From NCBI GenBank assembly GCA_963761125.1, contig CAVXFV010000002.1, forward strand, positions 207,963 to 271,962: a stretch of DNA of 64,000 bases, written 5' to 3'. Below, one piece after another: positions 16,549-21,804 of this stretch. The translations under genes were made by a program, and so were the position numbers. The stretch's first letter is position 1, and each line of letters opens with the position of its first letter. Source of the stretch: Candidatus Latescibacterota bacterium (GTDB lineage Bacteria > Krumholzibacteriota > Krumholzibacteriia > WVZY01 > JAKEHA01). The notes beneath the pieces are model-generated. The model saw nothing but the letters and a program-made list of their open reading frames with translations, was not told where the DNA came from and ran no database searches.

Positions 16549-17424
16549 CTACTCCAGGTTCTGGACCTGCTCGCGCAGCTTCTCGGTTTCTTCCTTGAGC
16601 ACGACGACGTGCTGGATCACTTCCGAATCCGACGCCTTGGACCCGATCGTCGTCGCCTCGCGATGCATTTCCTGCAGGATGTACGTGAGCTTCTTCGACA
16701 CTTCGCCGCCGCCGGACAGCGCCTTGTTGAACTGATCGATATGGCTTCGCAGCCGCGTCAGTTCCTCGGTGATGTCGGTGCGGTCTCCCAGCAGAACGAT
16801 TTCGGCGGCGATGCGCTCTTCGCTGACCTTGATGTCGCCGGCGAGCTGCGCGACGCGCTTGCGCAGCGACTCCACGTTCTTCTTCGCGACGGCCGGGGCC
16901 AGCGCCTCGATGGAGGTGACCGTCCGATCGATGAGTTTCATTCGCTCGACGAGATCCTTTTCGAGCGCGCGCCCTTCCTCGATGCGCATGGTCGTGCATG
17001 CGTCGAGCGCGTTCGACAGCGCCTTCTCGACGAGCGGCCATAATTGATCGTCGTCGGGATCGGTCTCGCGCGTGACGACCGCGTCCGGAAGCTGGAGGAG
17101 CGCTTCCAGGCTGACGTGGTCGTTGAGTCCGTGCTTCTTGGCGAACGCCCGGAGCTGTGTCAGGTACTGTTCGAGCGCGGCGTCGTTGATGGTTACCGAT
17201 CTTCCGGCCGCCGCGGACTCGACCGACATCGTGATCGACACCCGTCCGCGGGCCACCTTGCGGCGGACCACGTCCTTGATGTCGTTCTCGCGGTTCTGGA
17301 GTGCGCGGGGAAGCTTGAACGCAAGATCGAGAAAGCGGTGGTTCACCGACCGGACCTCGACGGTGACAGTCGACGTCGAATCCGTCGCCTCACCCTGACC
17401 GAATCCCGTCATGCTGATCAACAT
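16549..17424 (-). CDS. YicC-family stress-induced protein (YicC_N + DUF1732)
   Basis: ORF 16549..17892 trimmed to the ATG at 17424 (MLISMTGFGQGEA...VRSVNHRFLDL). The C-terminus reads EVSKKLTYILQEMHREATTIGSK. Confidence 0.9.
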   Translation of the reverse strand: MLISMTGFGQGEATDSTSTVTVEVRSVNHRFLDLAFKLPRALQNRENDIKDVVRRKVARGRVSITMSVESAAAGRSVTINDAALEQYLTQLRAFAKKHGLNDHVSLEALLQLPDAVVTRETDPDDDQLWPLVEKALSNALDACTTMRIEEGRALEKDLVERMKLIDRTVTSIEALAPAVAKKNVESLRKRVAQLAGDIKVSEERIAAEIVLLGDRTDITEELTRLRSHIDQFNKALSGGGEVSKKLTYILQEMHREATTIGSKASDSEVIQHVVVLKEETEKLREQVQNLE

Positions 17425-17521
17425 CGTCGTACCTCGCAGGCAGTGATAAGATGAAACGCACCCTATACTATCGCCCGTGCGGTCACCTGTCAATTGACAA
17501 CGGGCGTTTCGATAAGGACTT

Positions 17522-18988
17522 ATGAACGCGTTGCTGCTTGCGATGTTCTCCGCCGAAGCGCGCGCCGAGATGATCGGCAGCACGCTGGCGACGCCGATAT
17601 GGTATCCGCCGGTTCTTTCGGTGTCGTTCGGGCGGCGCGCGAATCTCGTCGCGGTACTCGAGTCGCCGGGGCCGTTCTGTTTTCTCTCGCACGACACCCC
17701 GTTCGAGGGCGCCCGCGCCCCGCTCCGCTTCTCGCGACTGTCGGGCGCCGAGGTGACCGACGTGGCGATGGCCGACAACGACCGCGTGCTCGACATCCAC
17801 GTGGTGACGCGGAACGATCGCGCGCGCCTGACGCTTTCGATCGCGCTGTTCGGATCGGCGGGAAGCGCGTGGCTGCGGCGCGATGACACCATCCTGGAGT
17901 TCGTGGGATCCGACGCGACGCCGCGACCGAACCCGAAGCAACCCGGTAACGCGCCGACCGCCGCGATCGCGCCGCCGTTCTATCTCATCGCGACCGCCCG
18001 CCCCGGCGATGCCCCGCCGTCGCCGACCAGCAACGCGCCCGGGGGCGCCGCGGTTCTCGGACCGTTCGAGTCCGCGCTCGACGCGTGCGGCGTCCTGGGT
18101 GTTCGCGTGCTCGACGGTGCGCACGAGACGATCATTCGCCGTATTGCCCGCCCGGCGCGCCGGAAGGCCGACTCGCTCCGCCGGCTCGCGTCCAATCTGG
18201 AGGCCGACATCGCCAATGCCGCGCTGCACGAGCGCGAACGCCGCGAGGCGGAGACGCTGGCGGCGTATCAGACACGCGTGCCTCCGGGGGCGTCGGAGGT
18301 GGAACTGCCCGACCCGTACGATCCCGAGCGGGTCATGCGGATCGAGCTGGAGCCGTCCAAACCCTTGCGCGCGCAGATCGAGAAGCGATTCAAGCGCGCC
18401 ACCAAGATGGAAAAGCGCGTCGGTCACGCGACGCGACGCCTCGACCTCGCACGTCGCGAGGCCGACGACCTCGACGCGTCGCTGCGGCTTCTGGAGGCGA
18501 CCCAGTCCTTCACCGACGCACTACGCCTGGTGGAAGCGATGCGCGCGAAGTTCTCGATCGAACTCGAGGACCGCGCCCCGCCGATCGGTGGGCCTCGCAA
18601 ACGAGTTCAGGAAAAGACCTATCGCGAAATCGATCTGGATGCGCACTGGTTCGTCATTGTGGGTCGAAGCAACCACGAAAACGACGAGATCACGTTCAAG
18701 GTCGCGGCGCCAACGGACCTCTGGTTCCACGCGCATGGCGTTCCGGGATCGCACGTCGTCCTCAAGGCACGGGGCGGCGGCGACGGACCGTCGGCGCGCA
18801 TCGTCGAGCGAGCCGCTTCGGTGGCAGCGCACTACTCCAAGGCCCGCCACAGCGGGCTGGTCCCGGTCATCTACACCCAGCGCAAGTACGTGCGGAAGTT
18901 TCGCGGGGCGGCACCCGGCGAAGTGACGTGCGAGCGCGAGAAGATGGTGATGGTCGCGCCGATCCTGCCCGAGCCCGTCATCGAGTAG
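17522..18988 (+). CDS. NFACT-family protein, RqcH (ribosome quality control) -like
   Basis: The N-terminal NFACT-N-like region contains NDRVLDIHV (DR motif). The C-terminus is NFACT-R/DUF814-like (WFVIVGRSNHENDEITF...WFHAHGVPGSHVVLK). Confidence 0.7.
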   Translation: MNALLLAMFSAEARAEMIGSTLATPIWYPPVLSVSFGRRANLVAVLESPGPFCFLSHDTPFEGARAPLRFSRLSGAEVTDVAMADNDRVLDIHVVTRNDRARLTLSIALFGSAGSAWLRRDDTILEFVGSDATPRPNPKQPGNAPTAAIAPPFYLIATARPGDAPPSPTSNAPGGAAVLGPFESALDACGVLGVRVLDGAHETIIRRIARPARRKADSLRRLASNLEADIANAALHERERREAETLAAYQTRVPPGASEVELPDPYDPERVMRIELEPSKPLRAQIEKRFKRATKMEKRVGHATRRLDLARREADDLDASLRLLEATQSFTDALRLVEAMRAKFSIELEDRAPPIGGPRKRVQEKTYREIDLDAHWFVIVGRSNHENDEITFKVAAPTDLWFHAHGVPGSHVVLKARGGGDGPSARIVERAASVAAHYSKARHSGLVPVIYTQRKYVRKFRGAAPGEVTCEREKMVMVAPILPEPVIE

Positions 18989-18999
18989 TCCCCGTAGAC

Positions 19000-19266
19000 A
19001 AAAAGAAAAGAGGGAAGCACCGAAGTACTTCCCTCTTTCCGTGTCCAGAGAGCGCTGCCGCTCGGAATCACGCTAAGGGCAAGGGCTATGATTCACTTGG
19101 CTTGGCGAGCCACTCAGGGGAAGGCACCCAATTCCACCGATCCAGGGACCGGCGGAGGAGTACGCAGCCTCCATGACATCGCTCTCCGGCTCTGCGACAC
19201 CGCCTCTTCCTGTATCCCGGCACCCCGTTGCTGGAGCACCCTTCGTTAGCACAGCGTCGCAGTGAC
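19000..19266 (-). ncRNA. candidate sigma-54-dependent transcript of unknown function (sRNA or small-peptide mRNA)
   Basis: It is bounded by the sigma-54 promoter (19277-19292) and the terminator (19009-19036). The ORFs in it have poor third-position G+C compared with neighbouring genes. The ATG at 19270 lies at or upstream of the predicted TSS. Confidence 0.35.
19009..19036. terminator. bidirectional intrinsic terminator hairpin
   Basis: The stem is AGAGGGAAG / CTTCCCTCT with a 10-nt loop. On the minus strand it is followed by TTTTCTTTTTGT, which is strong. On the plus strand it follows the RqcH-like stop, with only a weak U tract. Confidence 0.7.
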
Positions 19267-19276
19267 TCATGCAATG

Positions 19277-19292
19277 TGCAATTGATATGCCA
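19277..19292 (-). promoter_or_regulatory. sigma-54 (-24/-12) promoter
   Basis: The minus strand reads TGGCATATCAATTGCA. This matches TGGCAC-N5-TTGCA with exact GG-to-GC spacing. Confidence 0.55.
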
Positions 19293-19331
19293 AGATGCGT
19301 GGTCGGAGTCGATTGTCCGTCGCGTTATGTC

Positions 19332-19356
19332 TTGTGGTCACAACGTGATACACGTT
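19332..19356. promoter_or_regulatory. palindromic element upstream of the sigma-54 promoter (candidate enhancer-binding-protein site)
   Basis: AACGTGATACACGTT is a perfect 6-3-6 inverted repeat (19342-19356). It is adjacent to TTGTG-gt-CACAA (19332-19343). It is centred about 60 bp upstream of the -24 element. Confidence 0.3.
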
Positions 19357-19441
19357 CACGTCCACCTGTTTCCCGGAAGCGCGAAACGGGTGGCGTAAAA
19401 AAATCTTACGAATGGAAAAGAAAACTTACGAAACGAGGAAT

Positions 19442-19831
19442 CTAACGATCGACGAAGCCACCCTCAGTATTGAGGGTGCCGACCCACGGTTCGACATCCG
19501 GAATCCCGCCCTGATAGACGTCGGTCCCGAAGTTAACCCAGTAGATCGTAAGCGTTTCGATCGCGGCGGTCCCGGGTCCCTTGGGAAGCGGCGTTCCGGG
19601 ATAGAGCGAGACGGTCACGCGGATCTTGTTCGACAACTCCGGGTCGCACTTGACGAGCAACGCGACTGAGGTGGTGAATCGGAGTGTTTGCCCCCCGTAC
19701 GTGATCGTCGACGTGCCCGCCGGAACCTTCTTCTCGAGCGGTGCCAGCAGTTCATCGCCGAAGCTGAGCGCCGGCAGGACCGGGATCAGCACCAGAAATA
19801 CGGCGAGGACAATTCGTCGGAGGAGCTTCAT
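19442..19831 (-). CDS. small secreted hypothetical protein
   Basis: ORF 19442..19834 has a signal peptide (MKLLRRIVLAVFLVLIPVLPALSFG). I recognise no family. G+C is lower than in surrounding genes. Confidence 0.5.
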   Translation of the reverse strand: MKLLRRIVLAVFLVLIPVLPALSFGDELLAPLEKKVPAGTSTITYGGQTLRFTTSVALLVKCDPELSNKIRVTVSLYPGTPLPKGPGTAAIETLTIYWVNFGTDVYQGGIPDVEPWVGTLNTEGGFVDR

Positions 19832-19879
19832 CACGCCAACTATAGCAGGCTTTTCCCGTTTCGGGTAGGCCCAAGTTGA

Positions 19880-21804
19880 TTACCCGACCGGGGAATTCCC
19901 GGCAAGGCCACTGCCCGGAATCCGCATATCGCCGCGCCGAACCGTGACCCGGCGGGCGTCGAGGTACTCCAGGAGCGGAACCGCGTGCTTGCGCGACACC
20001 CCCAATGCATCCCGGATATCGCCGACGGTGATTTCCGGGCGCGTCGCAAACAGCGCACGCACAGCGTCCAGGCATCGGCTCATTGCCGTGACGTGCATGA
20101 GACCGTCCCCCACCTCGACCGCGCGATTCGCCTCCCGCAGGTAGCGGGCGGCCTCCGCGAACGGCTCCGGCGCCGACCACGCACGTTCCGCCTCGGCGCG
20201 CGACAGAAAGGCGACACCGGCCGCTTCCAGCGCGCGGTCGAGCGCGGCGAGAGCATCGCGCAGCCCGGGCGTGAGGTGGATGTCCGAATCCCCCGCCCGA
20301 ACGCGGTCTTCGCGGACGAACAGCGGGTGCGTCGCGGAGACGACGTCGATGACGCGGTTGAACAATGCGGCCGGGTGCGGGAAATCGACGCGGCGACGGA
20401 GTTCCTCCTTGTCGATACCCCATTGCAATGGATGTCGGGACGTGTGCTGCGTCGCCAGCGCGATCGCGCGCTCGGCCAGCGCGTCGAGCGCATCCCGCGC
20501 GAAAACGCGGCCCGCGATTGCCGTCGCGTCGCCGCGCGCGAGGATCGGCGCCGCAGTTTCCGCGTCGATGTCCGCCTCGACCAGGCCGTTCATTCCGGCG
20601 CGTTCGATCATCCGCGCGAGGATCGTTTCCGGATCGCCTTGCTCGCGCGTCGTCAGTCGCTCGATCACCGATGCGTCGTGGCGCCGGTGCACGTCGGCGC
20701 GCGCGTCGATCACCCGTCCGCCCGCGATGACGCGCGGCGGCGAATAGCGCCTGAACACCAGCCGGTCGCCCGCGTCCGTCACCATCGGAGACTCCAGGCG
20801 GAGCTGCGCCAGCGCGGTGCCGTCCGCTCCCAGGTCGTCGGTGTTCAGCAGCACGACGCGGCCCAGCAGTTCGCGGGCGCCGTGGTGCACGCGCACGCGC
20901 TCGCGATTCTTCAACACGATGTCGTCGAGCGCGGTGAGCGTGATGCGCACGTCGACCGTGCGGCTCGCGACGAACCGCCCCGGCGTGGCCAGCGTGTCAC
21001 CGCGCGCAATCTGATCGAGTTTGACGCCGTGGAGCGCCAGCGCGAGTCGCTCGCCGGCGGTTCCCTGCGCGCGCTTTGCACCAAAACTCTGCACCTCGCG
21101 TACCCGCACGCGCAATCCCGACGGCAGGAGGTCGAGTTCGTCGCCGACGGCGACGCGGCCCGAGTAGCCGCTGCCGGTGACGACGACGCCGATCCCCTTT
21201 TGATGAAACACGCGGTCGATCGCCAGACGAAACGGGCCCGACGCATCCCGGCTTTCGATGCCGCGCGCGATCGCGAGCAGGCTCGCGCGCAGCGCGTCGA
21301 GGCCCGCGCCCGTTCGCGCCGACGCCTCGATGACGGGGGCGCCTTCGAGAAACGTACCGCGAACGAGTTCGGCGATCTCTTCCTTGAGCAACGGAAGCGT
21401 GTCGTCGGTCGCGAGGTCCGACTTGGAGATGACGACCACGCCGTGGCGTACGTCGAGCGCACGCAACACGTCGAGGTGCTCGCGCGTTTGTGGCATCACG
21501 CCTTCGTCCGCGGCGACCAGCAACAGGGCCAGGTCGATCCCGCCGGCGCCGGCCACCATCTGCCGCACGAAGCGCTCGTGACCGGGGACGTCGATGATAC
21601 CGACGAACACGTCATCCGCGAGCGCAAGCGGCGCAAAGCCGAGCTCGATCGAGATCCCGCGTTCCTTTTCTTCCTTCAGACGATCGGTATCGACGCCGGT
21701 GAGCGCCCGGACGAGTTCGGTCTTGCCGTGGTCAACGTGTCCGGCGGTGCCGAGAATGAAATGTCGCGCCGCCGCGGCGCCCGCGATGCCGTCCGGGGGT
21801 TCAC
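19880..21804 (-). CDS. selB: selenocysteine-specific translation elongation factor (start region disrupted or non-canonical)
   Basis: The in-frame G domain reads [16 protein letters not shown]...DVPGHERF...SKSD. The C-terminus is winged-helix ([29 protein letters not shown]). No canonical start lies in frame upstream of the P-loop. The GTG at 21804 is one base out of frame across a C5 run. Confidence 0.85.

Follow-up and report, generated by a model that had tools for sequence, protein, structure and literature searches.

The window analysed here is a 64,000-nucleotide stretch of contig CAVXFV010000002.1 (assembly GCA_963761125.1, Candidatus Latescibacterota bacterium, phylum Krumholzibacteriota), and it holds on its minus strand, between positions 19000 and 19267, the predicted gene of a structured RNA. 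Judged from the comparison of genomes, this RNA is a new family, found only within one order of uncultured Krumholzibacteria, where each genome has one copy. The locus is almost certainly a real and conserved noncoding RNA gene. With a probability of roughly 0.75-0.8, its product would be a trans-acting structured RNA whose transcription depends on sigma-54 and is controlled by an enhancer, and it would probably serve as a signal-induced regulator. A sequence-only reading of the window had described the locus as either an enhancer-dependent small RNA (sRNA) or a tiny peptide gene; the comparative evidence speaks for the sRNA.

The distribution of the locus is sharply delimited. A DNA search of 61 related genomes recovered it from all 36 genomes of the same order and from none of the 25 that belong to other families of the class. 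With a covariance model of the 3' domain of the RNA (R1), one full-length copy per genome was found in 36/36 genomes of the order, with E values of 1e-15 to 1e-33 for intact copies, and no match was obtained in 172 other genomes of the class. These 36 include metagenome-assembled genomes (MAGs) that are 65-80% complete, and in two fragmented assemblies a contig end splits or truncates the copy. The inner 21-mer of the core sequence GAAUCAUAGCCCUUGCCCUUAGC served as the query for further genome and metagenome loci. An exact scan with this 21-mer over one genome per species returned 33 species, almost all of them MAGs named Candidatus Krumholzibacteriia or Latescibacterota, and the same 21-mer occurs in 55 metagenome contigs; since these loci were searched with it, their identity over the 21-mer follows from the search. 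In a sister order no divergent homologue was detected near the NFACT gene, where the model run with filters off gave at most 10.8 bits; there the NFACT gene is not syntenic and the whole neighbourhood is missing. Two short metagenome contigs (L097 and L115) carry truncated copies, of which just the 3' part is left, joined directly to unrelated protein-coding sequence; chimeric assembly is the probable cause, the alternative being real rearranged partial copies.

The transcription unit is bounded by the following features.

19000-19267, minus strand: predicted transcript of ~268 nt, from an inferred start at ~19267 to the end of the U-tract
19277-19292, minus strand: sigma-54 promoter, with -24 element TGGCAT and -12 element TTGCA (GG-N10-GC)
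19000-19040, minus strand: intrinsic terminator, in which a UUCG loop caps a stem of 16 bp (19040-19005) and the U-tract occupies 19004-19000 (TTTTT)

On the minus strand, positions 19292-19277 read TGGCATATCAATTGCA, a single base off the sigma-54 consensus TGGCAC-N5-TTGCW and with the exact -24/-12 spacing, so that the near-consensus promoter named by the sequence-only reading is indeed there. The pattern TGGCAYN5TTGCW has one match in the window, against 0.02 expected from shuffles, and just 6 in the whole genome (3.33 Mb); no sigma-70-like promoter was found in 18500-20000. In 25 of the 28 relatives with upstream sequence, 156-175 nt (134 nt in one) separate TGGCA[CT]-N5-TTGC[AG] from the RNA core downstream of it, and each of the remaining three is one base off this stricter pattern while retaining GG-N10-GC. 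The five bases of the promoter spacer vary freely among relatives around this kept GG-N10-GC, and the sigma-54 motif is present in nearly all of the 67 unique full-length homologues, drawn from genomes and metagenome contigs. From the spacing to the -12 element, the transcript would start near 19267, and its predicted length agrees with the terminator-bounded transcript of ~270 nt that had been proposed.

At the other end, the hairpin and U-tract that had been noted at 19036-19000 are the same feature as the terminator listed above. Nothing else in 18500-20000 resembles a terminator, and 12 nt separate the end of this one from the stop of NFACT, the convergent gene. This G+C-rich hairpin with its U-tract keeps its position in the relatives, and the changes in its stem are compensatory, for example GAGGGAAGCAC/GUGCUUCCCUC, GAAGGAGGCAC/GUGCCUCCUUC and AGAGGCACG/CGUGCCUCU. 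In relatives of the same genus, DNA homology starts at the promoter motif and stops at the terminator. The hairpin may serve both convergent units, the RNA and NFACT. Loci L017 and L020-L023, from genera g2-g6 within the same family, differ in that the U-tract follows not the first 3' hairpin but a second, G+C-rich one behind it, so that the RNA there may reach ~320 nt with an extra 3' stem-loop.

The genome is equipped for this type of transcription. The search for rpoN and for genes of bacterial enhancer-binding proteins (bEBPs), which had been suggested as a check, returned rpoN (Sigma54_DBD at 218.6 bits in a 538-aa frame) and 14 strong bEBP genes with Sigma54_activat matches. One of the bEBP genes of the window's genome (G000 C7:164717-165766; L185 1418-2467, plus strand) encodes a PspF-like protein of 349 aa that consists of AAA+ and helix-turn-helix domains alone, with no N-terminal sensory domain, and it lies directly downstream of the gene of a 202-aa lipoprotein.

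Upstream of the promoter, a conserved region has the appearance of an enhancer.

19414-19430, minus strand: upstream dyad A, CGTAAGTTTTCTTTTCC, a distal and partly degenerate copy that starts 11 nt past the stop codon of a small secreted-protein gene
19394-19410, minus strand: upstream dyad B, CGTAAGATTTTTTTACG, with CGTAA-N7-TTACG as a perfect inverted repeat; relative to the predicted transcription start site (TSS) it lies at about -127 to -143
19362-19393, minus strand: hairpin CCACCCGTTTC...GAAACAGGTGG, between the dyads and the promoter, with no U-tract in the window's copy

Of 72 unique upstream regions, 70 contain a dyad of the form GT[ACT]A-N6-9-T[TAG]AC, for which shuffles give 0.10 per region, and 43 hold at least two. 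Throughout the order the dyads, spaced 19-20 bp apart, are concentrated at 110-150 bp ahead of the -24 element, and the tandem sits directly past the stop codon of the preceding gene. These putative sites thus fall within the range, roughly 80-200 bp from the promoter, that would be looked for in an upstream activating sequence (UAS). The perfect dyad with its A/T-rich spacer occurs a single time, here, in the 3.3-Mb genome. The tandem dyads are likely binding sites of an activator protein, and dyad B is likely the main bEBP binding site; their place and form are as expected for an activator site, which, together with the uniqueness of the perfect dyad in the genome, suggests a dedicated activator. 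In many relatives an intrinsic terminator of the upstream small gene stands between the dyads and the promoter (a hairpin with a T-run at the position matching 19362-19393 in L021, L023, L025 and L027), which makes the RNA a transcription unit of its own.

Other elements of this region were observed. The intergenic segment 19268-19441 upstream of the RNA has 47% G+C, the window 65%. A semi-conserved TAAC-N3-4-TTG, about 55-65 bp upstream of the -24 box, could be a DNA-bending site of IHF/HU type. The perfect palindrome AACGTGtatCACGTT (19356-19342, minus strand), which relative to the predicted start lies at about -75 to -89, was considered as an enhancer and rejected, as it is unconserved in relatives; part of the genus has AACGGCCGTTGC near its position.

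The predicted RNA folds into two domains, the second of which contains an exceptionally conserved core.

19192-19262, minus strand: 5' domain, in which P1 (19262-19251 with 19203-19192) encloses hairpin P2 (19240-19233 with 19226-19219)
19204-19218, minus strand: purine-rich and, by prediction, single-stranded segment GGGAUACAGGAAGAG, which links P2 to the 3' strand of P1
19045-19189, minus strand: 3' domain, closed by the long-range helix P3 (19189-19175 with 19059-19045)
Inner helices of the 3' domain, minus strand: P4, 19172-19157; variable hairpin P5, 19156-19133; P7, 19112-19098; P8, 19094-19065
19063-19129, minus strand: near-invariant core of ~65 nt, 90-98% identical across two families
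19125-19113, minus strand: C/U-rich strand GCCUUCCCCUGAG, within the near-invariant core
19072-19094, minus strand: 23-mer GAAUCAUAGCCCUUGCCCUUAGC, most of hairpin P8, with the 11-nt loop CCUUGCCCUUA at 19084-19074

The window's RNA has a fold energy of -125 kcal/mol (z = -3.6), and RNAalifold, applied cluster by cluster, gave the same architecture in each of five subgroups. Over 66 sequences, 93% of cells are paired across the structure, compared with 36-44% when the partners are slid by 1-3 columns; changes on both sides were seen in 17 pairs overall, and none of 500 shuffles reached the observed values. The helices of the two domains covary strongly; covariation in homologous regions had been proposed as a check. 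In P3, 13 of 14 pairs changed on both sides in the 66 sequences; P1 has both-side changes in 10 of 12 pairs and 72% of its cells paired (29-45% in slid controls), and P2 has 90% paired (35-57% in slid controls). The region thus combines compensatory helices with the lack of any conserved open reading frame (ORF).

Primary sequence is conserved in both domains. In the 5' domain, all 28 genome-derived sequences of alignment A1 read CAGGAAG (with columns C56 and G58-G62 unchanged), and CAGGGAG replaces it in one of the 48 metagenome-expanded sequences of alignment A3. In the 3' domain, the 23-mer GAAUCAUAGCCCUUGCCCUUAGC is invariant in all 28 genome-derived homologues of A1. The P7 hairpin, UGGC-UCGCCAA-GCCA, lies in the near-invariant core and covaries in the most divergent members, where UGGC/GCCA becomes UGGU/ACCA. 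Both stem strands of P8 and most of P7 are fixed, with no covariation, in the very sequences in which P3 covaries at nearly every pair, and this difference suggests that a folded surface is recognised sequence-specifically. With the flanking proteins down to 30-50% identity and the RNA core unchanged, this core is more conserved than any neighbouring protein.

The RNA belongs to no family on record. Rfam 15, with 6S, Qrr, GlmY/GlmZ, CrcZ, CsrB/RsmZ and riboswitches among its families, gave no match in the window at gathering thresholds, the locus searched at E up to 10 returned terminator-hairpin noise only, and ten diverse homologues searched at E up to 1 produced no recurring family, again with terminator-hairpin noise. 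The failure of the sequence-only reading to place it among known RNA classes or riboswitches was therefore borne out. The classical chaperones are equally missing: CsrA, Hfq and ProQ were each found in 0/36 genomes of the order, and a tblastn search was negative as well. An sRNA dependent on Hfq or ProQ was accordingly rejected, neither chaperone gene being found in any of the 36 genomes, and so was a CsrA sponge of the CsrB/RsmZ type, with CsrA in 0/36 genomes and a single invariant unpaired GGA in the RNA. Small, single-domain RRM_1 proteins are present in 35/36 genomes of the order, in 1-6 copies each; the window's genome has four, for example at C2:13538-13750. Among the known classes of sRNA-binding protein, the order has these RRM-type proteins alone, and its repertoire of RNA-binding proteins resembles that of Bacteroidota and cyanobacteria.

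From these features a mode of action can be proposed. A dedicated bEBP, one of the ~14 of the genome, would bind the tandem CGTAA-N7-TTACG dyads ~110-150 bp upstream of the -24 element and, on a signal, would activate sigma-54 RNA polymerase at TGGCAT-N5-TTGCA; transcription would then halt at the strong intrinsic terminator. The RNA would fold so that its 5' domain displays the invariant purine-rich strand GGGAUACAGGAAGAG and its 3' multi-helix domain is closed by the covarying long-range helix, and the invariant 3' module (P7, P8 and the C/U-rich strands) would be the functional surface, acting in trans. As to what this surface meets, we favour, at a little under even odds, a conserved protein that would recognise the invariant module sequence-specifically, the RNA being an inducible decoy or adaptor in the manner of GlmY and CrcZ, two sigma-54-dependent sRNAs that work by protein sequestration (PMC4152352, PMC5113210). 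We lean to a protein partner because P8 and most of P7 are fixed, because the invariant core has no extended antisense target and because RRM_1 proteins occur in nearly all genomes of the order. Hfq-independent base pairing is ranked second.

Several points weigh against this proposal. Both the TSS and the 3' end of the RNA are predictions, and no activator gene lies close by: on the contig, ~170 kb separate the locus from the nearest bEBP. The RRM proteins offer a lead to the partner at the level of the class only, and recurrent binding motifs, as sponge RNAs typically have, are missing from the RNA. The exposed C/U-rich loops of the RNA would be suited to base pairing with purine-rich ribosome-binding sites as well. 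Finally, the window's genome is ~81% complete, so that a target or partner could lie in the missing part.

Base pairing is the most serious competitor, a possible and somewhat unlikely one. Here the RNA would be a sigma-54-controlled riboregulator whose loop CCUUGCCCUUA and strand GCCUUCCCCUGAG pair with the purine-rich ribosome-binding regions of several mRNAs and block their translation. The two segments are C/U-rich, invariant or nearly so, and by prediction lie unpaired or in a loop; Shine-Dalgarno (SD) sequences of GGAGG or GAAGG type occur in the start regions of these genomes; and a strong terminator with a U-tail is typical of trans-acting sRNAs. The Qrr sRNAs, also sigma-54-dependent, pair with mRNA and have a long invariant stretch (PMC3730234). 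The search for targets, however, did not bear this out. No extended antisense target of the invariant core was found in the genome: its top matches, a 16-mer in the gene of a PorX-like response regulator (C13) and a 15-mer in the DXS gene (C6), both encode G-K-G-Y and were rejected as chance matches, because 30 orthologues of the regulator do not keep the complementarity, their wobble positions being unconserved. The initiation region of the adjacent small gene shows no conserved pairing (mean z = 0.08 over 38 genomes), and motifs complementary to the loop are not enriched before start codons genome-wide, at 11-17% compared with 12-18% in reversed or permuted controls. A perfect CAGGGGAAGG next to a bEBP gene was likewise set aside as a target, being inside a lipoprotein ORF and not a ribosome-binding site. 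In addition, conservation spans ~65 nt and both strands of the stems, far beyond a seed, and the order lacks Hfq and ProQ. The PorX-like gene itself (G000 C13:108623-110164, minus strand; 514 aa, with a receiver and a PglZ/alkaline-phosphatase-type domain) is found in 34/36 genomes of the order, and its codons 23-28 are complementary to 16 nt of the RNA core in the window's genome only.

A further reading, which we hold to be distinctly unlikely, takes the ~65-nt module for the core of a new ribonucleoprotein, or of an RNA competent for ligand binding or catalysis, and not for the surface of a riboregulator. The RNA would then be a sigma-54-inducible, orphan large structured RNA in the sense of OLE, raiA and ROOL, specific to the order and accompanied by a lineage-specific protein, in bacteria devoid of Hfq, CsrA and ProQ.

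Far less probable is a cis-acting leader or riboswitch, in which a ligand or protein sensed by the structured domain would decide whether transcription passes the terminator and runs antisense to NFACT and then into yicC-gmk. A conserved multi-helix domain does stand directly before the terminator, whose purine-rich 5' arm is partly complementary to the invariant CCUUCCCC and could in principle form an antiterminator, and past NFACT every genome has yicC and gmk in the orientation of the RNA. Nevertheless, the next downstream gene, NFACT, is convergent at all loci examined, and the nearest co-oriented gene is ~1.6 kb away, across this antisense gene. The 16 bp and the U-tract make for a very strong terminator, the putative antiterminator pairing spans 5-7 nt with no covariation, no Rfam riboswitch matches, and the sigma-54 promoter would already give tight on/off control.

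It is more improbable still that the RNA is a divergent copy of a housekeeping RNA (6S, RNase P, SRP or tmRNA) missed by the Rfam models. One copy per genome of the order and an extremely conserved core would fit such an RNA. The genome, however, holds a canonical 6S RNA elsewhere (G000 C6:277679-277859, minus strand; 64.8 bits against a cut-off of 46.4, RF00013), and even at E = 10 Rfam returned only the terminator-hairpin noise. Absence from 172 other genomes of the class is unexpected for an RNA of this kind, an enhancer-dependent sigma-54 promoter is not expected for a constitutive one, and the two-domain fold is not rod-like.

Least probable of all is that the conservation reflects a small peptide, either of 33 aa (MEAAYSS...HSPCP) or encoded by one of two ORFs, of 65 aa (19073-19270) and 62 aa (19086-19274). 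The particulars given by the sequence-only reading are accurate: both ORFs exist and begin upstream of the predicted TSS, their G+C content at third codon positions (0.59 and 0.63) is below the 0.78-0.85 of neighbouring genes, and in the window's genome GGAGAG-N7 precedes the ATG at 19174, which opens the 33-codon frame and yields exactly the peptide quoted. A conserved coding signal was nonetheless looked for and none spans the region, and a small-protein gene was rejected, start, frame and length all being unconserved across homologues: close relatives have AGG, AAG, CTG or TCG where the 33-aa peptide has its ATG; the ORF closed by the TAG of that peptide measures 7-64 codons over 67 homologues, and its start is mostly a GTG whose position differs without relation from one to another; insertions and deletions in the variable hairpin put the frame out of register, and the distance to the core, taken modulo 3, is distributed 20/15/12; TAG stops lie inside the invariant core in two of three frames; and the putative SD GGAGAG is one strand of the covarying P3 helix.

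The genes around the RNA follow a fixed order wherever it is visible: MurA, SelB, a 130-aa secreted protein, the RNA, a convergent NFACT/RqcH-like protein, a YicC-like protein and Gmk. With the whole block frozen, adjacency says little about the function of the RNA. The 130-aa protein (19442-19834, minus strand) has a signal peptide and no Pfam family, and in nearly all genomes of the order its gene directly precedes the RNA, with identities of 31-67%. Within the genus, a conserved CTGnTATAGT that looks like a -10 box precedes its start codon by 12-13 nt, which would give a leaderless mRNA or one with a very short leader. On the 3' side of the RNA lie the NFACT/RqcH-like protein (17522-18988, plus strand; 488 aa, NFACT_N and NFACT-R) and the YicC-like endoribonuclease (16549-17430, minus strand).

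The locus offers a cleanly bounded new RNA family in an uncultured phylum of the Fibrobacterota-Chlorobiota-Bacteroidota (FCB) group, in an order devoid of the classical sRNA chaperones. Its regulatory region is complete and conserved, with two putative enhancer dyads, a -24/-12 promoter and a terminator. It yields a ready covariance model for the annotation of these MAGs, a defined DNA site by which the cognate activator could be found among ~14 candidates, and a defined RNA surface for the search of a partner. We know of nothing reported on post-transcriptional regulation in Krumholzibacteriota, and this RNA is a good entry point to it.

To our knowledge, sRNAs under sigma-54 and enhancer control come from just a handful of proteobacterial systems (Qrr, GlmY/Z, CrcZ and few others), each of them central to a major decision circuit. 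Outside this group, the RsaE/RoxS-type sRNAs of Firmicutes have exposed C/U-rich loops that can pair with the SD without Hfq, and similar loops are predicted to be exposed here. RsaE differs in its length of ~100 nt and in not being controlled by sigma-54; the two RNAs are not homologous, and the RNA described here shows no enrichment of targets at start codons.

Nearer in their regulation are the Qrr1-5 RNAs of Vibrio, which are transcribed with sigma-54 and the bEBP LuxO and share an absolutely conserved stretch of ~32 nt (PMC3730234). The RNA of the window is likewise predicted to depend on sigma-54 and an enhancer, and its own conserved stretch measures 23 nt. The Qrr RNAs are ~100 nt long, Hfq-dependent and multi-copy, with defined mRNA partners, whereas here the RNA is ~268 nt long and single-copy, in a lineage devoid of Hfq, with no conserved target found.

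The activator CbrB binds upstream dyads of GTAAC-like half-sites, which is a lead only. With sigma-54, it drives the CrcZ and CrcY RNAs of Pseudomonas, which sequester Hfq/Crc, CrcZ being ~400 nt long (PMC5113210, PMC6296734). What they would have in common with the RNA described here is a long transcript dependent on sigma-54 and a bEBP, a dedicated activator at upstream dyads (putative here) and, as proposed here, the role of a trans-acting protein antagonist (PMC5113210, PMC6296734). CrcZ acts through repeated A-rich Hfq-binding motifs; these are absent from the RNA described here, as is Hfq from all 36 genomes, and there is no homology.

The GlmY/GlmZ system of Enterobacteriaceae has sigma-54 and the bEBP GlrR/QseF as its regulators, and GlmY is a decoy for RapZ (PMC3045617, PMC4152352). 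The new RNA belongs to a different phylum, has no sequence or Rfam similarity to GlmY/GlmZ and a different UAS sequence, is not linked to two-component genes, and is larger, with two multi-helix domains. The likeness lies in the design: a stand-alone gene with a sigma-54 promoter, upstream activator sites (putative here) and an intrinsic terminator, and a structured RNA (150-200+ nt) whose conserved stem-loops would, as we propose for the present case, be recognised by a protein, and not act by Hfq-mediated seed pairing alone (PMC3045617, PMC4152352).

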